Assembly: GCA_030019415.1 (NCBI GenBank)
Contig: JASEEX010000003.1
Coordinates: forward strand, 6,583-70,582
Direction of reading: 5' to 3'
Length of the DNA stretch: 64,000 bases
Source of the DNA: Thermodesulfovibrionales bacterium
Lineage (GTDB): Bacteria > Nitrospirota > Thermodesulfovibrionia > Thermodesulfovibrionales > SM23-35
The translations under genes and the position numbers were made by a program. The notes under the pieces are model-generated. The model saw only the letters and a list, made by a program, of their open reading frames with translations, was not told where the DNA came from and searched no databases. The stretch's first letter is position 1. The number at the start of each line of letters is the position of its first letter. Positions 3,115 through 60,248 of the stretch are shown one piece after another.

Positions 3115-3205
3115 ATTGGCTATTTCAATTCAGATCTGCTCCGCAGGTATATTTTCAGGTCTATGACCTGTTATATAGCTTGCCTTTAATCTCTTCAGCC
3201 TCTCC

Positions 3206-3319
3206 TCAACAGATGGATGAAGGATAAGCTCCTGAGGCACCTGCCATCTTGAGTTCCGGGTTAAAAAGGGCATACCAGCCTTTATCAGAAAGGGGTGATA
3301 TTGTAGGTGAGTGCTTTGC
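3206..3319 (-). pseudogene. Degenerate partial duplicate of the hisG 3' end
   Basis: 3237-3319 aligns to 3655-3770 at roughly 85% identity with a ~40-nt internal gap. It translates to [28 protein letters not shown], versus his[40 protein letters not shown]. Confidence 0.8.
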
Positions 3320-3383
3320 CGTTAAGAAAGAACTAACAGTGAGTACCTTAAAATGCTATAATTGGAAAGTAAGGAGGAATAAC

Positions 3384-3560
3384 ATGGAAGATAATATTAT
3401 AAAGCTTCAGATAGAAAGTATAGAGCAGCAGTTAAAAATACTGAAGGCAAAGATATTTAAAAAGAAGACCCCCAAAAAACTATCCAGCCTATACGGCATC
3501 TTTGAAGGAAAATTGGATTTTCCTCTGGAAGAAATAAAGAAATATGAATACCTGACATAA
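3384..3560 (+). CDS. Small coiled-coil protein of unknown function (58 aa)
   Basis: AGGAGG lies 6 nt upstream of the ATG at 3384. MEDNIIKLQIESIEQQLKILKAKIF… has a heptad-like pattern. The upstream part of the tracked ORF (3249-3383) is only antisense to the hisG fragment. Confidence 0.5.
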   Translation: MEDNIIKLQIESIEQQLKILKAKIFKKKTPKKLSSLYGIFEGKLDFPLEEIKKYEYLT

Positions 3561-3609
3561 CCAGGAAACCTAAATGTAGCCTTGATTTATTAAAAGGAGT
3601 CAGAAAAGT

Positions 3610-4485
3610 CTATGGTATTACCTTGTTAAGCTGATACTCCACAATCCCTGATGCACCTGCCATCTTGAGTTTCGGAATAATGTCCCGCACAATCTTCTCA
3701 TCAATCATGACCTCAAGGGCATACCATCCCTTATCAGAAAGAGGTGATATAGTGGGCGAGTGCATGGCAGAGAGAAGGCTCATCACCCTTTTAAGAGAAC
3801 CCTCCGGGACATTCATCTTGAGCCCGACCTTCTCCTCTGCAGCGAGGGCACCTTTAAGGAGCATCACAATATTTTCCATCTTCTGTCTCTTCCAACTATC
3901 ACGCCATGACTTTTTGTTCGCTATAAATCTTGTGCTTGATTCAAGGATGGTCTCAATAATTCTCAGATTATTAGCCTTTAAGGATGCACCCGTCTCTGTT
4001 AGCTCAACAATTGCATCAGCGAGGTGTGGGGGTTTCACCTCTGTTGCACCCCATGAAAAATCCACCTCAGCCTTTATACCTTTGGATTTAAGATACTTCT
4101 TTGTAAATCCTACAAGCTCAGTCGCAATGCGCTTTCCTTCCAGGTCCTTTAAAATCCTTATCTTAGAATCATTCGGAACTGCTATTACCCACTTTACAGG
4201 CCTGAGGCCTTCCTTTGCATAGATAAGCTCAGCGACCTCATGGACATCAGCATTCTGCTCCATTATCCAATCTTTACCTGTAAGACCGCAGTCGAGTATT
4301 CCGTTTTCCACATATCCTGCCATCTCCTGTGCCCTGATCAACATAGCTTCAATCTCAGGGTCATCAAGGGATGGATAGTAAGAACGGTCTGATATAGTTA
4401 TGTGATATCCTGCCTTTCTAAAGAGTTTTAATGTGGATTCCTGAAGACTTCCCTTCGGAAGACCAAGTTTTAATATCTTATTCAT
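3610..4485 (-). CDS. hisG: ATP phosphoribosyltransferase, long form with C-terminal regulatory domain
   Basis: 291 aa. [15 protein letters not shown]…, DCGLTGKDW and a C-terminal HisG_C-like domain. Confidence 0.9.
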
Positions 4486-4758: not shown

Positions 4759-7700
4759 ATGGATTTTATACCTTTACAAAATATAATTGAGCAAGACTTA
4801 AAAGGTTCGCGCCTTTACAACCTTACGGGCTCATCTTCAGCCTTTCTTCTTGCCCTGTATGATAAGCCCTATCTCGCTGTTGAAGTAACGGAAGAACTTG
4901 CAGAAGAGCTCTATAAAGATATCAACTTCTTCAGAGAGGTCTTGAGAAAAGACAAAGTCCTCTTTCTTCCCGAACCTGATGGACCTTCCCTTTCAGGTGA
5001 GAGGGCAAAGACAATCTACTCCCTTAAAAAGTGCTCCCTTGTCTGTTCTTTTAAAACCCTTGAATCACCTGTATGGTCTCGGAGAGAAATAGAGAGAGTC
5101 CTTCTCAATCTCAGGGTTAGAATGGAGATAGAGAGGAAAGAAATAGAGAAGAGGCTTCAGGAGATGGGCTACAGAAGGGTTCCCCTCGTTTCAGAAAAAG
5201 GGGAGTTCAGCCAGCGCGGATGGCTCTTCGACATCTTTCCTTCGACATCAGAGACCCCTTTGAGGGTTGAGTTTTTCGGTGACGAGATAGAGAGTATAAA
5301 GGCCTTTGATGTGGACACACAAAGGTCAACCGAAAATGTGCCTGATTTTGTGATATTGCCAGCAGAAGAGCCTCTTTCAGGTAAAAGCCTCTTAGAAATT
5401 ATGGAAAATGTAAAATGCTTCTCTTCAGATTCGATTCAGGAGAGAGAAAGACTTCCCGGGGATGTTACCTTTCTTTCGAGATACTCTATAAAAGGACCCG
5501 GTTATGATGCAGGGATGCTTTCTCTTAAAGGCTTTGGGATTATACCTGAGGAAAGGAGTTATATTGAGGAATTACCACAAAAGATCAGGCTCCTTCACAA
5601 AGAAAACAGAGTAGTCCTCATCTCTTCATCGAGGGGCCAGGCAGAAAGGCTTAAAGAGATACTCAGAGAAGGAAGTGTCTTCGCTCCCCTCATTGATAAA
5701 ACAGACCTTCTTGATTATGAAGGTTATGTCTCGATTACAATTGGCGACCTTTCATCAGGTCTCTTCTTTCCAGGCCTCTTAATCCTTACGGAGAAAGAGA
5801 TATTCGGTGGAAGACCTGGGTATAGACCTATAAAAAAATCAAAGGTATCAAAGCTCATTACTTCTCTGGATGACCTCCTGCCAGGTGACTTTGTTGTCCA
5901 CAGAGATCATGGCATTGGAAGATTTCATGGACTCGTACGACAAAGTGTTGAAGGTATTGAAGAAGATCTCTTAGTAATCGATTACGAAGGTGGAAGGCTC
6001 TACATTCCTCTTCACAGCATTAATAGTATCCATAAATATCATGCTGAAAAAGGGATTATTCCAAAGATTGACAGGCTTGGAGGGAAAACATGGCAGAGAA
6101 CAAAGGAAAGAGTTAGAAAGAAAATAAATGAGATGGCAGAAAGGCTCATTGCCCTTTATGCAGAGAGGGAAGTCTCTAAGGGTCCCCCATTCAGCCCTGA
6201 TACAGAGCTCCACAGAGAATTTGACAGCTTCTTTCCTTACGAAGAGACGCCTGACCAGACAGTGGCTATAAAAGATATCAAAAAAGATATGGAATCGGAA
6301 AGACCAATGGAGAGGCTCATCTGCGGCGATGTCGGATACGGAAAGACAGAGGTCGCAATGAGGGCAGCCTTCAAGGCAGTATATGATGGAAAACAGGTAG
6401 CTGTTATTGTGCCCACTACAATACTGTGTGAACAGCATTACAGGACCTTCAAGATGAGGTTTTCTGCCTTTCCGATAAGGATAGAGCACCTGAGCAGGTT
6501 CAAATCAAAAAAGGAACAACAGGAGACCATCAAGGCCCTATCTCATGGCGATATAGACATTATCATAGGGACGCATAGCCTCCTCAGTGAAGATATACAT
6601 TTTCACAAACTCGGCCTCCTCATCATTGACGAAGAGCACAGGTTTGGAGTCAGACAGAAGGAGAGGATAAAAGAACTCAAAAGGGGTATCGATGTTCTCG
6701 CCCTCACCGCAACACCTATACCGAGAACACTTTATATGGCACTCTCGGATATCAGAGATATGAGCATAATCGAGACACCTCCTGAGGAAAGGCTCGCTGT
6801 CAGAAGTATTGTCTCTATATTTAATGGGGAACTTATAAAAGAGGCTATAGATAGGGAACTCGAGAGAAAAGGCCAGGTCTTTTTTGTTTATAACAGGATA
6901 AAGGACATACATAAGATTGCCGAATATCTGATGAGACTTCTTCCTTCAGCAAGGATATCTGTTGCACATGGACAGATGCCTGAAAGGGAACTCGAAAAAA
7001 TCATGCTCCAATTCTACGAGGGCAAAATAGATGTCCTTGTCTCTACTGCTATAGTTGGGTCAGGCATTGACATTCCAACAGCTAACACCATCATCATCAA
7101 CAGGGCAGATATGATGGGACTTGCTGAACTCTATCAACTAAGGGGGCGCGTAGGCAGAAGCAATGTGAAGGCCTATTCCTATTTTCTTATTCCTGGTGAG
7201 GATATCATCACTGAAGAAGCCAGAAGGAGGCTACAGGCAATACAGGAGATGAGCTATCTCGGAGCTGGCCTCAGGCTTGCTATGAAAGACTTAGAAATTA
7301 GGGGTGCAGGAAACCTCCTCGGGCCTGAACAATCAGGACATATCTACGCCGTCGGCTTCGACCTTTATATAGAGATGTTAGAAAAGGCGGTGGCTGAACT
7401 AAAAGGCGTGAAGATAGAAGAGGAGTTTGAACCATCAATAAGCTTAAAGGTTAATGCCTTTATACCAGAAGAATATGTAGATGACATAACGCTCAGGCTC
7501 AGCCTGTATAGAAGGATTGCATCATCAAAGACGCATGAGATCCTAAAGGCTCTTGAATTAGAGATGGAAGACAGGTTTGGAAGACCACCAGAAGAGGTAA
7601 AAAACCTCCTCAATATAATGAGGCTTAAAATAATGGCTAAGGAACTCCTCGTTACAAAGATCCAGGATGTACATGGAAGGATCCGGGTAATCTTCTCTCC

Positions 7701-12247: not shown

Positions 12248-12306
12248 GTCACCCTGAACTCGTTTCAGGGTCTCATTTTAGAGATTCTGAAATAAATTCA
12301 GAATGA
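12248..12306. repeat. GTCAnCCTGAA…TTCAGG / CTGAAATAAATTCAG palindromic repeat units
   Basis: GTCACCCTGAACTCGTTTCAGGGT and GATTCTGAAATAAATTCAGAATGAC. Same family as 36601-36693. Confidence 0.7.
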
Positions 12307-12426
12307 CAGTTTACAGACATCTTTTATCAACCCTTGCGTAATTTGGGTTAAATTAAACAAAAATTATTTAAATGCTAAACATAGTCAGCTTTTCCAGAGT
12401 TTTTTTAATGACTGAAAACATTCCTA

Positions 12427-22575: not shown

Positions 22576-24567
22576 TTGCACAAAGATAAGATTGATGACA
22601 ATATGATAAAATCCTCTATGGAGTTTCTGGATATCCTCTTTCCCATAAACCTCGGCCCTTTTACCTATAGATGCCCTGATGAACTCTTAGGAGTTGCAGA
22701 ACCGGGCATGATTGTGAGCGCACCCCTTAAAAACAGAATCGCAAAAGGGATTATCACAGGAAAGTCTTTAATAGTCCCATCTGGTGATGTAAAAGATATT
22801 CAGAAGGTCTATGGTGATGCCCCGGTATTAAGCAGTAATATGATTAACCTCCTCAGATGGATGTCGGAATACTACCTGACAGAAAAGGGTGTCGTGCTAA
22901 AAACCATGCTCCCAAAAGAGGCATTTACAAAGGTAAGACCGAGAAAGGCAAAAATCCCCCCTTACCCCCCTTCAATTCCCCCCTTACCAAGGGGGGATAA
23001 AGAGGAGTCAAAGGGGGCAGTATCCAGTCTTGCCCTGAACTTGATTCAGGGTTCGATAAATAAAAAGGCATACAGGACATTCCTCCTTCATGCCCCATCT
23101 TCTGCATATGAGTATTCCTTTGTGGTAAAGATCCTTTCGGGGGCGGAGAATGCAATACTTCTTATTCCAGAGGTCTCCCAGATCGATACCCTTTACCCTC
23201 TTTTAAAGGAGAAGTTTGGAGAAAGGGTATGCCTTCTACACAGTGGGCTGAGCAGGGGCAAAAGGTCAGAGGCGATAGAGAGAATTCTATTGGGTAGCTC
23301 TGACATCGTGCTCGGCACAAGGTCTGCTGTCTTCGCACCTCTGAAAAAAGTCTCCTCCATTGCCGTACTCCATGAACATAGCAGCTCTTATAAACAAGGA
23401 GAGGGCCTCCGTTACAGCGGAAGGGATGTTGCAGTAATGAGAGGCTATCTTGAAAGGGCAACCGTACTTCTTTCATCCATCTGTCCCTCCATTGAATCTC
23501 TCTATAATTGTAGATCGGGTAAATACAATTTAGTAAAACCAGAAGGAGATATTAAAAAACCCAGGGTGAGGGTGATAGATATGAAACATGAAAAACTTCT
23601 CAAGCCATATCTATCGAAGAGAGTTATTGATGCCTCTATGAGATATATTAAAAATGATAAAAAAGTAATGTTCTTGATAAACAGAAGGGGATACTCACTT
23701 CTGCAATGCACTGAATGTAATTACATACAAGAATGTCCTGACTGCAGAATTCCCCTGGTCTTCCATAAACATGACTCCTCTCTAAAGTGCCATTATTGCG
23801 GATACATATCTGATGTGCCTGAGAGTTGCCTCAGATGTAAAGGCTATAGCGTAAAGCTCCTCGGTGCAGGCACCCAGAGGGTCCAGGAAGACATCGAAGA
23901 ACTCCTGGGGATAAAAACCCTCAGGCTTGACAGTGACGTGTCCAGGAAAAGATCAGAGGTAGAAGGATTGATTGGGGCTATGTATAAAGACGATGTGAGG
24001 ATAATCGTCGGGACAAAATTCATGACAAGGAGGCTGGGTCCTGAATCAAGTTCAGGATCTGGAGGATTCTCCATGGCAGCTATTCTGAATACAGACCTTT
24101 TTCTTAATCTCCCTGATTTCAGATCTGTTGAAAAGGCATATCAGGAAATCTCATCCATAATAGATAAAATCGAGCCCCAGGGAGAAATATTCATCCAGAC
24201 AAGGATGCCACAGAACTACCTGTTTAAATACTTGAAAGATTATAATTATGATTCATTCTTCAGGGAAGAACTAAGCAGGCGCAAGTCCCTCCGCTATCCT
24301 CCATATTCAAGGCTTTTACTCATTAAATTTATAAGTAAAAAGGATCTGTCGAGGAAGCTATCAGAGATTCTAGAAAGGGCAGGTAAAGAAGTGGAAATCC
24401 TCGGCCCATCTATATCAAAGAATACTCAAGGCAAATACGAGTTCAAGTTACTTCTGAAGTCCTCTATTCGTGGAGGTCTTCATTTTGTAGCCAGAACCTT
24501 TATGGAGATATTCAAAGAATCAAAAGATGTAAAAATAAAAGTAGATGTTGACCCTATATCAATTTAG
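22576..24567 (+). CDS. priA: Primosomal protein N' (PriA) homologue with degenerate ATPase motifs; start uncertain (22576, 22603 or 22618)
   Basis: Colinear with PriA: LHSGLS..R, GTRSAVF, SSYKQ, the four-CxxC zinc region (CTECNYIQECPDC…CHYCGY…CLRCKG) and LRYPPYSRL. However, Walker A, Walker B, SAT and motif VI are substituted (see findings). Confidence 0.8.
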   Translation: MHKDKIDDNMIKSSMEFLDILFPINLGPFTYRCPDELLGVAEPGMIVSAPLKNRIAKGIITGKSLIVPSGDVKDIQKVYGDAPVLSSNMINLLRWMSEYYLTEKGVVLKTMLPKEAFTKVRPRKAKIPPYPPSIPPLPRGDKEESKGAVSSLALNLIQGSINKKAYRTFLLHAPSSAYEYSFVVKILSGAENAILLIPEVSQIDTLYPLLKEKFGERVCLLHSGLSRGKRSEAIERILLGSSDIVLGTRSAVFAPLKKVSSIAVLHEHSSSYKQGEGLRYSGRDVAVMRGYLERATVLLSSICPSIESLYNCRSGKYNLVKPEGDIKKPRVRVIDMKHEKLLKPYLSKRVIDASMRYIKNDKKVMFLINRRGYSLLQCTECNYIQECPDCRIPLVFHKHDSSLKCHYCGYISDVPESCLRCKGYSVKLLGAGTQRVQEDIEELLGIKTLRLDSDVSRKRSEVEGLIGAMYKDDVRIIVGTKFMTRRLGPESSSGSGGFSMAAILNTDLFLNLPDFRSVEKAYQEISSIIDKIEPQGEIFIQTRMPQNYLFKYLKDYNYDSFFREELSRRKSLRYPPYSRLLLIKFISKKDLSRKLSEILERAGKEVEILGPSISKNTQGKYEFKLLLKSSIRGGLHFVARTFMEIFKESKDVKIKVDVDPISI

Positions 24568-26157: not shown

Positions 26158-26955
26158 TTAACCCAATGTGACAACTACTTTTTCTCCAACCGCTATGCCA
26201 AAATTTGATGAAGCACTACCTCTGTACACAAAAAGCTCGAGATAGCCAAAGCTGTTTATTAGTGAATAAAGCCCCTCGTCTCCAGCCTCGGAGTAGTGAT
26301 TCTTGAGAGGCACCTCTATGCCTTTCACTAACGCCCTGGGTTTTCCCTCCGGAGTGCTACAGAGTTCATCAATATTTTTAGTCTTTATATTCGTTATTGC
26401 ATTTCCGAATCGGTCTATATAAATAACCTCACCTTCAAGTATATTCTTTTCTACCAAAACCGGAGCTGGTACGGGCATTGTTACATAATCAGTAATTGGG
26501 TCACCGAATTTTGAAATATCGATACCCCTCGAGAACCAGGCGGCTACAGGGGCAAATATGTCCCTGCCATGGAAGGTTGAGCTCCTCTGGGGCAAGAAAT
26601 AGTGTTCTGCTGTAATATGTATAACATTAAGGCTTTCACTTAAGTTATAAATCAGAGAAAAAACACCATTATCAGATCCTACAAAGTAATAGTAGTCCGT
26701 TGTTACGAGAATAGGTCTGCGGACAGAACCCACACCCGGGTCAACAATAACAACATGTATCGACTCGTGGGGGAAGAATTTAAAGCTCATCTCGATTGCG
26801 ATGGCTGCTTCCATGATGTTCTGGGGACCTATATCGTGGGTGATGTCTACGATAGTGGCAGCAGGATTTATATCCAGAATTACCCCTTTCATAATCCCCA
26901 CAAAAGGGTCTCTGTAGCCGAAATCAGTTGTTAAGGTTATTATAGGATTGTGCAT
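26158..26955 (-). CDS. SAM hydroxide adenosyltransferase family protein (DUF62, SalL/FlA-like fold)
   Basis: ITLTTDFGYRDPFVGIMKGVI…VDITHDI…VVIVDPGVGS…FHGRDIFAPVAA. Confidence 0.85.
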   Translation of the reverse strand: MHNPIITLTTDFGYRDPFVGIMKGVILDINPAATIVDITHDIGPQNIMEAAIAIEMSFKFFPHESIHVVIVDPGVGSVRRPILVTTDYYYFVGSDNGVFSLIYNLSESLNVIHITAEHYFLPQRSSTFHGRDIFAPVAAWFSRGIDISKFGDPITDYVTMPVPAPVLVEKNILEGEVIYIDRFGNAITNIKTKNIDELCSTPEGKPRALVKGIEVPLKNHYSEAGDEGLYSLINSFGYLELFVYRGSASSNFGIAVGEKVVVTLG

Positions 26956-27859
26956 TATTCAAACCCCCGATGATTTCTTTCACACCCCTCATGCCTTTTT
27001 TCCCCAAATATTCCTCAATCCCGCTGATAATAGCAACAGTTGCCTCAGGATTCGCAAAATTGGCAGTTCCAACCGCCACAGCAGTGGCACCGGCGAGCAT
27101 AAATTCAATGGCATCCTCGGCACTCATAATACCACCCATACCAATTATCGGAATCTTTACAGCATTGTAAGTCTCCCAGACCATCCTCACAGCTATCGGT
27201 TTGATTGCAGGGCCTGATAGACCACCTGTAATATTTGAGAGTTTTGGCTTACCTGTCTCAATATCGATAGCCATTCCTGATATGGTATTAATGAGAGATA
27301 CGGCATCACTACCAGAGTCTTCTGCTATCTTTGAAAATTCCTGAATACTCGATACACTCGGAGATAACTTCGTAATCAGAACCGCCCTTTTTACCGATTG
27401 CCTCACCTTTGATACAAGCATTGCAAGTGTCTTCTTATCGGTGCCGAAGATCATCCCTGCCTTTTTCACATTCGGACATGAGACATTCAGTTCTATTCCG
27501 TCCACACCTGCATTATCCAGGGCCTCCGAAAGCCTCACATACTCCCGCACAGTATTGCCGAGGATATTGACTATCACCGGCGTGTCGAATCTTCTCAGAT
27601 AAGGCAGCTTCTCTTTTAAAAATCTTTTCAGCCCGACATTCTGGAGGCCAATTGTATTCAGCATTCCGCATGGTGTTTCACATATCCTCGGAGGTGGATT
27701 GCCCTCCCTTGGCTCTAATGATATGCCCTTAACCACAACAGCACCGAGCCTATTCAGGTCAACAAATTCCGAATATTCCTCGCCGTATCCAAAGGTTCCA
27801 GAGGCGGTCATAACAGGGTTTTTGAGTTTAAGATGACCTATGTTTACAGTCAAATCCAT
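26924..27859 (-). CDS. pyrD: Dihydroorotate dehydrogenase, class 1B catalytic subunit
   Basis: Start set at MDLTVNIGHLKLKNPVMTASGTFGYG. NVSCPN and GGLSG motifs present. The tracked start at 28000 reads through the repeat element. Confidence 0.9.
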   Translation of the reverse strand: MDLTVNIGHLKLKNPVMTASGTFGYGEEYSEFVDLNRLGAVVVKGISLEPREGNPPPRICETPCGMLNTIGLQNVGLKRFLKEKLPYLRRFDTPVIVNILGNTVREYVRLSEALDNAGVDGIELNVSCPNVKKAGMIFGTDKKTLAMLVSKVRQSVKRAVLITKLSPSVSSIQEFSKIAEDSGSDAVSLINTISGMAIDIETGKPKLSNITGGLSGPAIKPIAVRMVWETYNAVKIPIIGMGGIMSAEDAIEFMLAGATAVAVGTANFANPEATVAIISGIEEYLGKKGMRGVKEIIGGLNNAQSYNNLNN

Positions 27860-27870
27860 AATGCTAAAAA

Positions 27871-28009
27871 GATAAGGGATTGCCCTTGAGCGGATTCTTT
27901 TGCCGATATTCCAATGAGAAAACACCCATATATAAAGAGGCAAAAGCCTCGGAGTCCCGCACCATAACATGGTGCGGGACGAGAATGAGCGAAAGGGCAA
28001 TCCCTTATC
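27871..28009. repeat. Two-copy structured element, copy 1 (conserved core inside a private 17-bp perfect inverted repeat)
   Basis: Outer arms GATAAGGGATTGCCCTT / AAGGGCAATCCCTTATC. Core TTCTTTTGCCGATA…ATAAAGAGGCAAAAGCCTCGGAGTCCCGCACCATAACATGGTGCGGGACGAGAATGAGCGAA is shared with 59952-60088. Confidence 0.85.
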
Positions 28010-28034
28010 TTATCTTCACTTAAAAAATATTTGA

Positions 28035-28844
28035 CTACCACAAAATCTCCTCTATAGGAAATACCGGCCCATCTTTACAGACCATCTTGTAGCAAAGGGC
28101 TAAGGTTTGACTTTTAACTTTAATTGCACATCCCAGGCATGCACCAACCCCACATGCCATGTTCTCCTCAGCAGAGATATAACCCTTTATCCCTCTTCCA
28201 AGAGCAATTCTGGATACAGCCTCGAGCATTGGTTTAGGACCACAGGCATAAATTAAGTAAGAAGTCAGAAGTGAGAAGACTTCGGCGAGCTCAGTCGAGC
28301 CGTCAGAAGTTAGAAAATCATTTAAAACATCAACTACCGTGCCTTTTTCTCCCATAGAGCCATCGTCGGTGCTTATAATCAGTTCACCTGCTAATCCTTC
28401 CAATTCATCGAGCATCAGAAGCCCTTCTTTATCCCTTGCACCGTAAAATACGTATGCCCTTTTTGCAAAAGCCTCCACGAGAGAAAAGACAGACGCGATA
28501 CCTATACCACCTGCGATAAGTAAAGGCGTCTTATCACCTCCTGGTTCTGGGTATCCCTTACCGAGGGGGCCAAGGATATTTATAACCTCACCACCTCTGA
28601 AGCCCTTCATCATCATGGTACCCCTGCCCCTCACCTCGTATAAAAACTGAATTCCCTCTGATGTTTTTCTGAAAAAGCTAAAAGGTCTCTTAAGAAAAGG
28701 ATCATGGGAATTACTAACCCCTATCATATAGAACTGCCCGGGCTCAGGGTTGATTACTGGTTCTAAAGGCTCCATACTGAGGAGACCGTTTTTGCCATTT
28801 AAGGAAAGGTTATTTATTATCTTTGCCTTGAAGTGCCTACTCAA
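28035..28844 (-). CDS. pyrK: Dihydroorotate dehydrogenase electron-transfer subunit
   Basis: FAD/NAD-binding fold (PGQFYMI, RPFS, GGIGIA) and C-terminal 2Fe-2S ligands CGVGACLGC…C. Confidence 0.9.
28255..28317. repeat. In-frame heptamer array inside pyrK (63 nt = 9 x 7 = 21 codons)
   Basis: AAGTAAG AAGTCAG AAGTGAG AAGACTT … CAGAAGT TAGAAAA. The reverse complement carries CTTCTGACTTCT, shared with the fdhA and larC arrays. It encodes [21 protein letters not shown]. Confidence 0.75.
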
Positions 28845-34242: not shown

Positions 34243-34310
34243 AACTCCTACAACCCCCACCCTGCCCTCCCCCTTAAAGGGGGAAGGATAGGGAGAGGGT
34301 GTTAGGAGTT
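34243..34310. repeat. Long imperfect G/C-tract hairpin (AACTCCTACAACCCCCACCCTGCCCTCCCCC-TTAAA-GGGGGAAGGATAGGGAGAGGGTGTTAGGAGTT)
   Basis: ~31-nt arms. Related CCCCC-TTA…GGGGG motifs occur in frame in priA at 22955-23015. Confidence 0.7.
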
Positions 34311-34504
34311 ATCAGTTCCGATTTGTCGGAACGGTTAAGCGAACTCCATCGCCTGTTTCACTTTACCACAACAAAAACATATAAAGCAAGTATCAATAGT
34401 ATCCGAGTTTCAGGCTTCGTATAGAAATAGCCTAATCTTTAAATACTTCCATTGTTTGCAAGTTTTCTCTTTAGAGGTTATATTACAGAAACATAAGTTT
34501 TACA

Positions 34505-36600: not shown

Positions 36601-36693
36601 TGACATGCTGAACCCTGAATTTGTCATGCTGAATTTATTTCAGCATCTAATGAAATCATTTTGTTAAGAGACCCTGAAACAAGTTCAGGTGAC
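36601..36693. repeat. GTCATGCTGAA…TTCAGCATC / CCTGAAACAAGTTCAGG palindromic repeat units
   Basis: Three CTGAA-N-TTCAG palindromes in 93 nt. Same family as 61-156 and 12248-12306. Confidence 0.75.
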
Positions 36694-57486: not shown

Positions 57487-57600
57487 TTTAAATCCTAATT
57501 CCGAAATCCGAAATTCTAAACAATACCAAATGACCAAAATTCAAAACAGTTTTGAACATTTGGACTTCGAATTTGTTTAGGATTTAGTATTTTACAGTTT
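57487..57600. repeat. ~110-nt fold-back repeat, copy B
   Basis: CCGAAATTCTAAACA…CAAATGACCAAAATTCAAAACAGTTTTGAACATTTGGACTTCGAATTTGTTTAGGATTT. Terminal AAATCCTAA / TTAGGATTT inverted repeats. Fills the coaD-pncA spacer. Confidence 0.8.
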
Positions 57601-59877: not shown

Positions 59878-59951
59878 AATCTATGTTTGCTGATATGATG
59901 GAAATTTTTCAAGACATATGAAGCATGTGTAAGCATCTCCAAATCCGTAGT

Positions 59952-60088
59952 GGCAGGATATAGTATCTTCGCAGTTTCTTTTGCCGATAGTCCTTAAGCC
60001 TATTTTAATAATAAAGAGGCAAAAGCCTCGCAGTCCCGCACCATGATATGGTGCGGGACGAGAATGAGCGAAGATACTATATCCTGCC
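59952..60088. repeat. Two-copy structured element, copy 2 (same core, private 21-bp perfect inverted repeat)
   Basis: Outer arms GGCAGGATATAGTATCTTCGC / GCGAAGATACTATATCCTGCC. Core TTCTTTTGCCGATA…ATAAAGAGGCAAAAGCCTCGCAGTCCCGCACCATGATATGGTGCGGGACGAGAATGAGCGAA. Confidence 0.85.
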
Positions 60089-60248
60089 TTTATACTTACA
60101 GTTTATAAATATCGTTAATTTTCAACACGGAAAAAGAGGGGTTTCCGAAGCATGTTGAAAGGCTTAATGAAATGATATACTATTTTCACTATTTAGAGCA
60201 AAAGGCAAATGAGTGCATAAGCTCCGAGTTTTATAGGGGGAAGAAGTT

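Follow-up and report, generated by a model that had tools for sequence, protein, structure and literature searches.

Two copies of a probable hairpin-forming repeat family in a Thermodesulfovibrionales genome fragment

We describe a short, non-coding element that occurs twice in a 64,000-nucleotide stretch of DNA (the whole of which we call the window) from a Thermodesulfovibrionales bacterium (assembly GCA_030019415.1, contig JASEEX010000003.1). Copy 1 (27871-28009) lies between pyrK and pyrD, and copy 2 (59952-60088) between nadC and mgsA; both are on the forward strand. Our data suggest that the two loci are probably copies of an undescribed, interspersed repeat family of about 105-200 bp that forms hairpins. 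Together, a genome scan, a metagenome scan and orthologue look-ups yielded at least 25 distinct copies, with a single architecture. The most economical account, in which we have moderate confidence, is a selfish repeat defined by its structure. Such a repeat would be akin to MITEs (small transposable elements with inverted repeats) or to REPINs, the hairpin-forming doublets of repetitive extragenic palindromes (REPs).

The shared fold and the family

A first-pass annotation, made from the window alone, described a core of about 100 nt closed at both loci by perfect inverted repeats. The sequence, coordinates and common orientation are all confirmed. The 17-bp arms of copy 1 are GATAAGGGATTGCCCTT (27871-27887) and AAGGGCAATCCCTTATC (27993-28009), and pairing reaches 19 bp with an AA/TT included (27869-27887 against 27993-28011). 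The arms of copy 2 are 21 bp long, GGCAGGATATAGTATCTTCGC (59952-59972) and GCGAAGATACTATATCCTGCC (60068-60088), with the innermost 5 bp overlapping a conserved 3' motif. The closing repeats of the two copies are unrelated in sequence. Between them, TTCTTTTGCCGATA has the same letters in both copies. Furthermore, a 62-nt block from ATAAAGAGGC to GAGCGAA (ATAAAGAGGCAAAAGCCTCG.AGTCCCGCACCAT...ATGGTGCGGGACGAGAATGAGCGAA) differs at only 3 of 62 positions, in the junction and the hairpin loop. Each conserved motif occurs twice in the window, where shuffled sequences predict about zero, and a repeat search of the window independently recovers the arms of both copies. Elsewhere in the window, the arms have no better-than-chance matches. 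Predicted folding energies are -69.8 and -73.2 kcal/mol for copies 1 and 2, with z-scores of -10.1 and -11.9 against shuffles. Owing to the perfect arms, folding of the opposite strand of each copy is about as good. The parts of both copies, all on the + strand, are as follows.

27869-27887, +: copy 1, 5' arm of closing helix P1, AAGATAAGGGATTGCCCTT; perfect complement of 27993-28011; homologous arms at this site in L040, L042 and L043
27888-27893, +: copy 1, 5' junction motif GAGCGG, one side of a symmetric internal loop
27894-27896, +: copy 1, 5' strand of P2a, ATT; partner AAT at 27984-27986 (columns 29-31 and 151-153 of alignment A3)
27897-27946, +: copy 1, P3 domain; CTTTTGCC (27897-27904) with GGCAAAAG (27939-27946), around the variable segment
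27948-27953, +: copy 1, 5' strand of P2b, CTC (partner GAG at 27981-27983), then conserved unpaired GGA
27954-27980, +: copy 1, P4 hairpin, GTCCCGCACCAT-AAC-ATGGTGCGGGAC
27981-27992, +: copy 1, 3' conserved strand GAGAATGAGCGA, made up of the P2b and P2a 3' strands and the GAGCGA junction motif
27993-28011, +: copy 1, 3' arm of P1, AAGGGCAATCCCTTATCTT; complement of 27869-27887
59952-60088, +: copy 2, element bounded by P1; 108 bits with covariance model R1
59978-59985 with 60018-60025, +: copy 2, P3 helix
60033-60059, +: copy 2, P4, loop GAT
60060-60071, +: copy 2, 3' motif
59914-60168, +: copy 2, larger repeated unit of flank A, element and flank B (limits approximate)
59931-59951, +: copy 2, flank A, AAGCATCTCCAAATCCGTAGT
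60089 to about 60168, +: copy 2, flank B

Read along the GAGCGG...GAGCGA strand, the parts always follow the same order: P1 5' arm, (U)UGAGCGG, P2a (WUU), P3 domain, (A)CCUC (which is P2b), unpaired GGA, P4 hairpin, GAG-AAU pairing back to P2b and P2a, GAGCGA, and P1 3' arm. In the fold, P1 is the long closing helix, 17 to about 35 bp in length; inside it follow a symmetric GA-rich loop and a three-way junction of P2, P3 and P4. P4 is a GC-rich hairpin and the P3 domain is variable. We tested this structure on an alignment, A3, of 23 copies. Standard pairs fill 86.2% of cells, compared with 67.3% after column shuffling (none of 500 shuffles was as high) and 41-52% if partners are slid by 1-3 columns. 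Both sides have changed in 32 of the 43 pairs, including all 8 in P3. Note that the minimum-free-energy fold favours a GAGGC-AAAA-GCCTC hairpin, while the comparative data back the CTTTTGCC/GGCAAAAG helix instead. Since every P3 pair changes on both sides, the latter is the conserved helix and the former is not. Hence, the second helix that the first-pass annotation had drawn around the variable segment is upheld. So is its 12-bp GC-rich hairpin, which is P4 and is kept across the 23 aligned copies.

The P3 domain comes in three types. The short type, as in the window, is CUUUUGCC/GGCAAAAG; the mini type is UGAAUUC-hairpin-GAAUUCA; and the long type is UUGAGGCUGUUUUGG-CAUGG-hairpin-CAAAACAGCCGAAA, with the helix UUGAGGCUG/CAGCCGAAA. 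The facing GAGCG motifs give tandem G-A pairs, then G-C and C-G, then G-A/G-G. The 5' junction GCG is invariant, and the central G-C and C-G pairs are present in 23 of 23 copies. Copy 2, L017 and L029 have UC instead of the 5' GA, and this UC pairs with the GA facing it. The 5' junction of copy 2 reads TTCGCAG in place of TGAGCGG, and P1 thereby extends into the loop. Two of the three P2a pairs are kept in all 23 copies, and the P2b pairs in 22-23. The bulge after P2b varies (GGA, GCA, AGA) and has no pairing partner. The base of P4 covaries (GGCCGTC/GACGGCC in L015; GGTCG/CGACC in L040 and L043). The 3' strand GAGAATGAGCGA is exact in every family member found by it, with one variant, GAGGATGAGCGA, in L042. 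The innermost P1 pairs are conserved as YTTT/AAAR.

Copies were located by two scans and by orthologue look-ups. Scanning representative genomes with the P4 hairpin gave copies in one Thermodesulfovibrionales metagenome-assembled genome (MAG) and one Nitrospirae MAG. Scanning metagenomes with the exact 19-mer GCGGGACGAGAATGAGCGA gave 34 loci, mostly true members. Because the latter needed an exact 19-mer, the breadth of the family, and variation in the 19-mer block, are under-sampled. Copies reside in MAGs of Thermodesulfovibrionales/Nitrospirota and on one contig of Candidatus Terrybacteria, from the candidate phyla radiation (CPR). The SufB protein encoded by that contig (L012, with a long-type copy) is 100% identical to a Candidatus Terrybacteria MAG protein; hence, the family spans Nitrospirota and the CPR. 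Covariance model R1 gives 75-121 bits for seed-like copies, about 55 for the divergent L004 and L010, and 25-33 for the degenerate L026 and L037. In the window, it finds exactly the two copies.

No Rfam family was matched; the first-pass annotation had likewise recognised no RNA family. At Rfam 15 gathering scores, the window and 12 loci contained only tRNAs and a fluoride riboswitch, with nothing at the element. With the threshold relaxed to E <= 10, short-, long- and mini-type copies gave only chance hairpins resembling snoRNAs or miRNAs, far under the gathering score. BLAST against phages and plasmids found no match. Of two viral contig scans, one was empty and the other returned two chance matches within coding sequence, unmatched by model R1. 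The literature searched contained no paper with the conserved motifs, whichever their orientation, and nothing relevant on repeats of Thermodesulfovibrio or Nitrospirae. Several candidate identities were rejected. Self-cleaving ribozymes (hammerhead, twister, pistol, hatchet and hepatitis delta virus-like) had no Rfam match at E <= 10, and the CUGAUGA/GAAA arrangement is unfitting. A kink-turn, or box C/D-like motif, would share the tandem G-A, but P1 pairs up without a bulge and the P2 side has GG, not GA. Resemblances to K-turn, hammerhead, loop E and boxA did not fit on inspection. A retron non-coding RNA is disfavoured: there is no adjacent reverse transcriptase, and the neighbours are housekeeping genes. 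Frames of a small open reading frame (ORF) from conserved ATGAGCGA run into unconserved flanks. Finally, neither arms nor variable P3 segments behave as guides; the arms have no better-than-chance matches in the rest of the window and inspection revealed no complementarity between arms and variable segments.

The pairs are not symmetric between strands. Gapped comparison of each 5' arm with the reverse-complemented 3' arm gave 489 Watson-Crick pairs, 24 G-U, 5 A-C and 31 transversion mismatches. The G-U to A-C ratio is 24 to 5 (binomial p = 5e-4), or 53 to 23 in fixed register (p = 8e-4). Since G-U outnumbers A-C, we infer that the GAGCGG...GAGCGA strand is the one under pairing constraint, as RNA or single-stranded DNA. 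UUCG and GNRA tips, on the variable hairpins of L007 and L008, favour RNA. Frequent triloops, and the exact loop inversions described below, show that DNA-level hairpin processes act as well. In the two copies of L003 (a and b), the arms differ by 2 fully compensated pairs, P4 differs by 1 compensated pair, and every stem difference is compensated or a wobble.

Such observations could also be made of a functional structured RNA family (a protein-binding RNA, ribozyme or cis-acting mRNA element), with each copy selected. We consider this a serious, albeit clearly less probable, explanation. It draws on the covariation in P1, P3 and P4, the strand bias, the compensated L003 stems, the stable loop tips, and motifs identical across two phyla. 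If this were so, P1 might be a generic covarying closing stem and the GAGCGG/GAGCGA loop, GGA bulge and base of P4 the active or bound surface, a suggestion that is just as tentative. The locations of the copies, to which we now turn, bear on this.

Arms, subfamilies and element-free sites

The host genes of copy 1, identified by Pfam, bear out the reported position in the pyrK-pyrD spacer.

26924-27868, -: pyrD, dihydroorotate dehydrogenase catalytic subunit (Pfam DHO_dh, E = 2.5e-81)
28035-28844, -: pyrK, electron-transfer subunit (Pfam DHODB_Fe-S_bind and NAD_binding_1); stop codon 28035-28037

The pyrD ATG, at 27868, is 2 nt from the 17-bp arm and abuts the 19-bp helix. The conserved PyrD N-terminus, MDLTVNIGHLKLKNPV, begins at this ATG (giving 314 aa) and aligns with relatives. 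In the public gene model (P0001; 26924-28000, -), PyrD is 358 aa long, from a TTG start inside the element. An exact-sequence look-up of the 314-aa protein returned no record, because the public model starts at that TTG. The reading strand of copy 1 (GAGCGG...GAGCGA) is antisense to pyrK and pyrD. The pyr mRNA would carry the reverse complement, with a predicted folding energy of -70.7 kcal/mol and the base of the hairpin immediately next to the pyrD start codon. Such a hairpin (about -70 kcal/mol), lying after the pyrK stop and before the pyrD start, probably affects processing or stability of the mRNA.

Gene order around the site (proS-greA-pyrK-pyrD-SAM_HAT-coaE-ribF-priA) is kept in relatives, listed here with the identity of their PyrD to that of the window.

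L043, 91%: element present, arms as in the window, mini-type interior, P4 GGTCG-ACA-CGACC; antisense to pyr, like the window
L042, 85%: element present, homologous arms GGATATGAGGTTGCCCTT; sense to pyr
L040, 83%: element present, homologous arms GGATATGAGATTGTCCTT; sense to pyr
L038, 95%: neither element nor arms; a different palindromic repeat in the spacer
L044, 90%: neither element nor arms; AT-rich spacer
L045, 86%: neither element nor arms; an inserted PF05635 gene

Thus, four genomes (the window, L040, L042 and L043) keep the element at pyrK-pyrD, and the arms of copy 1 recur in all three relatives. In addition, the spacer is a hot spot for different insertions. In L045 it contains a 127-aa gene (473-856) with tandem ACCAATAACCAAAT-like repeats on its flanks; the product belongs to the 23S rRNA intervening-sequence protein family (PF05635). 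In L038 it is filled (2399-2480) by a palindrome of the type GTCATTCCCGCTTGTCGGGAATC...GGACAAGCCGAAATGAC, which is related to short REP-like palindromes of the window (listed below) and is also nested in the variable region of the L010 copy.

Arms are also shared between unrelated loci. The arm type of copy 2, GGCRGGATAYAGTATTT, is common to L001, L022, L013, L014, L020, L023 and L037. Copies with these arms adjoin genes for MoaC, Fur, DUF4079, GNAT/radical-SAM, PNPOx/EPSP synthase, UbiA, TrkH/tRNA and MgsA. A second subfamily, with arms TTTRCGCGTTTGC and P1 of up to about 35 bp, occupies five unrelated loci. Terminal repeats are therefore kept within subfamilies (at least 7 loci for GGCRGGATAYAGTATTT; 5 for TTTRCGCGTTTGC) and unrelated between them. 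In all-versus-all comparison of flanking ORFs, there were no common neighbours outside the pyr locus, except that L010 and L026 share one gene, about 2 kb from the elements, and that two weak matches, at 22-28% identity, occur between other loci. Within a subfamily, then, arms and element move together, and at a given locus the arms are inherited. The window copies belong to different lineages. The first-pass annotation had taken every copy to have an exterior unrelated to the others, an arrangement opposite to that of a MITE. This does not stand: the arms are shared in subfamilies, with GGCRGGATAYAGTATTT behaving like a common terminal repeat at unrelated loci, a result that the annotation had itself counted against its proposal, and are inherited at the pyr site. 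Similarly, its structured RNA with three helices and a covarying closing stem survives as P1, P3 and P4, but not with a stem private to each copy.

The site of copy 2 can be compared with an empty one. In L051 (MgsA 91% identical), the nadC-mgsA spacer is 103 nt long, without element, arms or palindrome. The window spacer is longer by about 255 nt, comprising flank A, element and flank B. The L001 copy, which lies beside unrelated genes and has its core in the opposite orientation, is bordered by flanks A and B as well. Because the flanks recur in this way, the repeated unit at copy 2 exceeds the part bounded by P1. The previously proposed extents are thus correct for the P1-bounded parts of both copies and, for copy 2, too small for the unit of about 255 nt (59914-60168). 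What remains in L048 (MgsA 95%; same MAG as L038) is decayed: one arm is gone, as are the 5' junction and both strands of P3. The sequence ACATGCTTC flanks the larger unit of copy 2 on both sides, in direct orientation, and is absent from the empty L051 site. Inspection of about 25 copies found no direct repeats flanking P1 of the kind left by target-site duplication. A 14-nt self-palindrome in the arms of copy 1 was considered as a target duplication and rejected, because of the inverted loop and because it is absent from L040 and L042. Downstream of mgsA, the region is variable. In L048, the closest relative, it has (3191-4233) a PIN-domain gene pair together with a large gene for a methyltransferase-endonuclease of MmeI/Eco57I type; the window and L051 carry other genes (in L051, a HicAB pair).

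These sites address whether the core could be a small mobile cassette, inserting at the centre of pre-existing, locus-specific palindromes, as the first-pass annotation had also proposed. Such a process would explain perfect locus-specific arms, both orientations at one site, and varied interiors on identical arms (as in the window and L043), all together. The GAGCG direct repeat at both core boundaries, and a possible target preference for the YTTT/AAAR pairs, would fit too. However, the four element-free orthologous sites (L038, L044 and L045 at pyrK-pyrD; L051 at nadC-mgsA) have neither arms nor palindrome, so insertion into pre-existing palindromes is unsupported. Searching about 400 kb for each arm type, with up to 3 mismatches, found no coreless arms, other than a contig-end truncation, the L048 remnant and chance matches. 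Moreover, arm and interior types co-occur over unrelated loci in two subfamilies, and flanks A and B move along with the copy 2 element. We therefore regard a core cassette as very improbable.

Inversion, exchange and the nature of the element

Orientation of the core differs between related sites. Relative to pyrK and pyrD, it is inverted between the window and L043, on one hand, and L040 and L042, on the other. Measured against flanks A and B, its direction in the window and L048 is opposite to that in L001. The loop of P4 behaves likewise: AAC (copy 1 and L003a) and GTT (L003b) are exact reverse complements, as are GAT (copy 2) and ATC (L001 and L002). In a frame fixed by the flanks, the core of copy 2 is inverted and its P4 loop is not, which implies nested inversion events. 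By analogy with a known class of event, the flips of cores and loops would be expected products of inverted-repeat-mediated inversion of palindromic DNA. Interiors differ too. The window and L043 have identical arms, with short- and mini-type interiors, respectively, and different P4 hairpins. At the pyr site, we find a short interior with the long P4 (window), short with the GGTCG P4 (L040), mini with the GGTCG P4 (L043), and mini with a GTTTCCC P4 (L042).

Inversion at two independent loci, between perfect inverted repeats of 17-21 bp placed around about 100 bp, might also indicate a programmed switch (inverton), in which the arms are recombination sites and the core is an orientation-dependent signal. 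We judge this highly unlikely. No invertase gene was seen among the scanned neighbours, and the core has no convincing promoter. The 3-nt hairpin loops also flip, which fits passive repeat-mediated inversion. Furthermore, arms differ between loci, which leaves no single site-specific recombinase able to recognise them all.

Copies lie tightly packed between housekeeping genes and point in either direction; neighbours include pyrK/pyrD, mgsA/nadC-like, lptF/lptG, sufB, rpsG and similar. Read from ORF maps, about 15 copies are co-oriented with host operon genes and about 10 of 25 are antisense. No conserved neighbouring gene was found across loci. Nor did the scanned neighbours include a transposase, reverse transcriptase or recombinase next to any copy, or a REP-associated tyrosine transposase (RAYT) or other Y1 transposase. 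In about 400 kb examined, there was no long element with 5' and 3' motifs split by an ORF, as expected of an autonomous insertion sequence (IS). Promoter searches, inside or upstream of the element, gave only weak consensus matches. At copy 1, the sole promoter-like site is a 9/12 match with a -10 hexamer that overlaps the pyrD start codon. The long-type copies have TAnAAT-like hexamers upstream, which were rejected as promoters since they are the AT-rich outer extension of P1.

Some copies have particular surroundings. In a Nitrospirae MAG (L003), a same-orientation pair (3625-3744 and 4936-5054) brackets lptG, within about 5 nt of its stop and first possible (GTG) start; the arms are near-identical, with compensated changes. 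In Candidatus Terrybacteria (L012), a same-orientation pair (266-418 and 1838-1990) brackets sufB, 0-20 nt from the coding ends, and the arms differ. Two short-type copies, in L001 (6328-6612) and L022 (2445-2528), lie downstream of co-oriented tRNA genes, about 30-140 nt away, and could be co-transcribed with them.

How does this affect the case for a functional RNA? The copies directly downstream of tRNA genes, and the element kept at pyrK-pyrD in four genomes, are in its favour. On the other hand, the antisense fraction, and the absence of a conserved neighbour, are not what it predicts. Since the core flips between close relatives at the pyr site, copy 1, as an RNA, would need antisense transcription, and the -10 hexamer of the one weak promoter-like site there is weaker still in L043. 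The L048 copy has decayed, and other relatives lack the element or any replacement. Exactly reverse-complemented triloops point to DNA-level processes.

A selfish repeat, which we prefer, accommodates the mixed orientation to host genes, the loss or decay in close relatives, and the lack of a consistently adjacent gene. In such a model, the repeat would propagate through a strand-specific folded intermediate, of RNA or single-stranded DNA. An enzyme would recognise its shape, and the conserved loop motifs, rather than a terminal sequence. Subfamilies carry the same arms to unrelated loci. At orthologous sites the unit is found or missing as a whole, together with its arms, and copies can decay. 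Because the DNA is palindromic, segments between perfect arms would invert; this would affect both the whole core and the 3-nt P4 loop, with arm correction keeping the arms complementary. Copy 1 would be a long-term resident of the pyrK-pyrD spacer and copy 2 a member of the GGCAGGATATAGTATTT-arm subfamily. The arms of the two copies would then be unrelated because they derive from different old lineages, and the cores nearly identical because interiors are exchanged between copies while arms stay.

Several points weigh against this preference. No mobilising enzyme, target-site duplication or family-wide terminal sequence was found, and mobility is deduced from distribution. The G-U excess, the compensated L003 differences and the UUCG/GNRA tips fit a functional RNA under purifying selection, as does retention at pyrK-pyrD across genomes with 83-91% PyrD identity. 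For interiors to be exchanged, 11-14 bp of flanking homology would have to suffice, a short length for ordinary recombination. In addition, Nitrospirota and a CPR bacterium share a 19-nt block without any difference, which requires either horizontal spread or very strong constraint.

Comparison with known systems and significance

MITEs, enterobacterial repetitive intergenic consensus (ERIC) sequences and Correia elements are likewise short, non-coding and intergenic. They have terminal inverted repeats, occur in either orientation, often inside operons, and form a long hairpin when transcribed; their subfamilies share termini. Compensatory changes have been reported for some such repeats, such as bcr1 of B. 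cereus. Unlike MITEs, the present family shows no target-site duplication, and neither a parent IS nor a transposase was found. Its family-wide conservation is in the pairing of the termini, not their sequence; the conserved part is an internal three-way junction, and interior modules are swapped on constant arms.

REP/REPIN-RAYT systems, and IS200/IS605-derived elements, also lack target-site duplication, are recognised as a folded single strand, and display strand asymmetry. They also reside for long periods in intergenic sites and have low duplication rates. However, both the 5' tetranucleotide (GTAG-type) and the palindrome of REPs are conserved. In the present family, the outer helix is the variable part, no conserved terminal tetranucleotide is visible, and the sequence examined contains neither a RAYT (Y1 HUH) nor a TnpA gene. 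Insertion of the IS1397/IS110 kind, into REP-type hairpins, would leave empty palindromes, which were found neither at the four element-free sites nor in about 400 kb.

Integron attC sites, too, are imperfect palindromes, read as a folded single strand and more by structure than by sequence, with variable length and terminal structure. They can bracket genes in direct orientation, as do the copies around lptG and sufB. The first-pass annotation was right to set them apart. In attC, the R boxes (RYYYAAC/GTTRRRY) are outermost and the centre is variable; in the family, the outer ends vary and the centre is conserved. Furthermore, it is core housekeeping genes that are bracketed, and no integrase was found. 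Small hairpin-associated inversions, in chloroplast genomes, similarly flip segments between perfect repeats among close relatives and leave loops as exact reverse complements. These are the by-product of a process, not an element, and here there are two levels, one nested in the other: the core of 100 bp and the P4 loop of 3 nt.

The window has other repeats and one known riboswitch.

34296-34362, -: fluoride riboswitch (crcB motif), 42.3 bits, above gathering score
42542-42644 and 57490-57592, +: a second two-copy element, AT-rich, about 110 nt, 82% identical between copies
83-100, 138-156, 2743-2760, 12253-12308, 23025-23050, 24039-24057 and 36622-36690: short REP-like palindromes, CCTGAAyyrrTTCAGG, often beside AGATTCTGAAATAAATTCAGAATGACA
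3231-3319 and 3647-3768: adjacent segments, 85-88% identical and about 416-449 nt apart, overlapping an ORF at 3610-4485 (-)

At the ends of the second two-copy element are long inverted repeats, AAATTCTAAATACGAA...TTTCGGATTTTGGATTTAGAATTT. This MITE-like element matches nothing in Rfam and has no relation to the hairpin family. The likeness of the two adjacent segments suggests internal or tandem duplication of a gene segment.

Our analysis defines a repeat or RNA family, absent from Rfam, with a testable consensus fold and a working covariance model. The family links distant lineages, Thermodesulfovibrionales/Nitrospirota and Candidatus Terrybacteria, both from groundwater. It shows how a palindromic repeat evolves in place: arms are inherited and remain complementary, while interiors are swapped and cores and loops inverted. 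Note that inversion and exchange can mimic private covarying stems and so mislead structure-based discovery of RNAs. The element also corrupts annotation, since the public pyrD start falls inside it. Whether the family is a new class is more doubtful. There is some chance, well short of even, that it is either a structured RNA of Nitrospirota and the CPR, in which the conserved GA-rich loop, GGA bulge and P4 make up a protein-binding or catalytic centre, or a cross-phylum mobile element recognised by shape. The latter would be copied via a folded single strand, without conserved termini or target-site duplication. A new system would open up if the folded strand turned out to be an RNA that has a partner protein, or a substrate for a structure-specific transposase.

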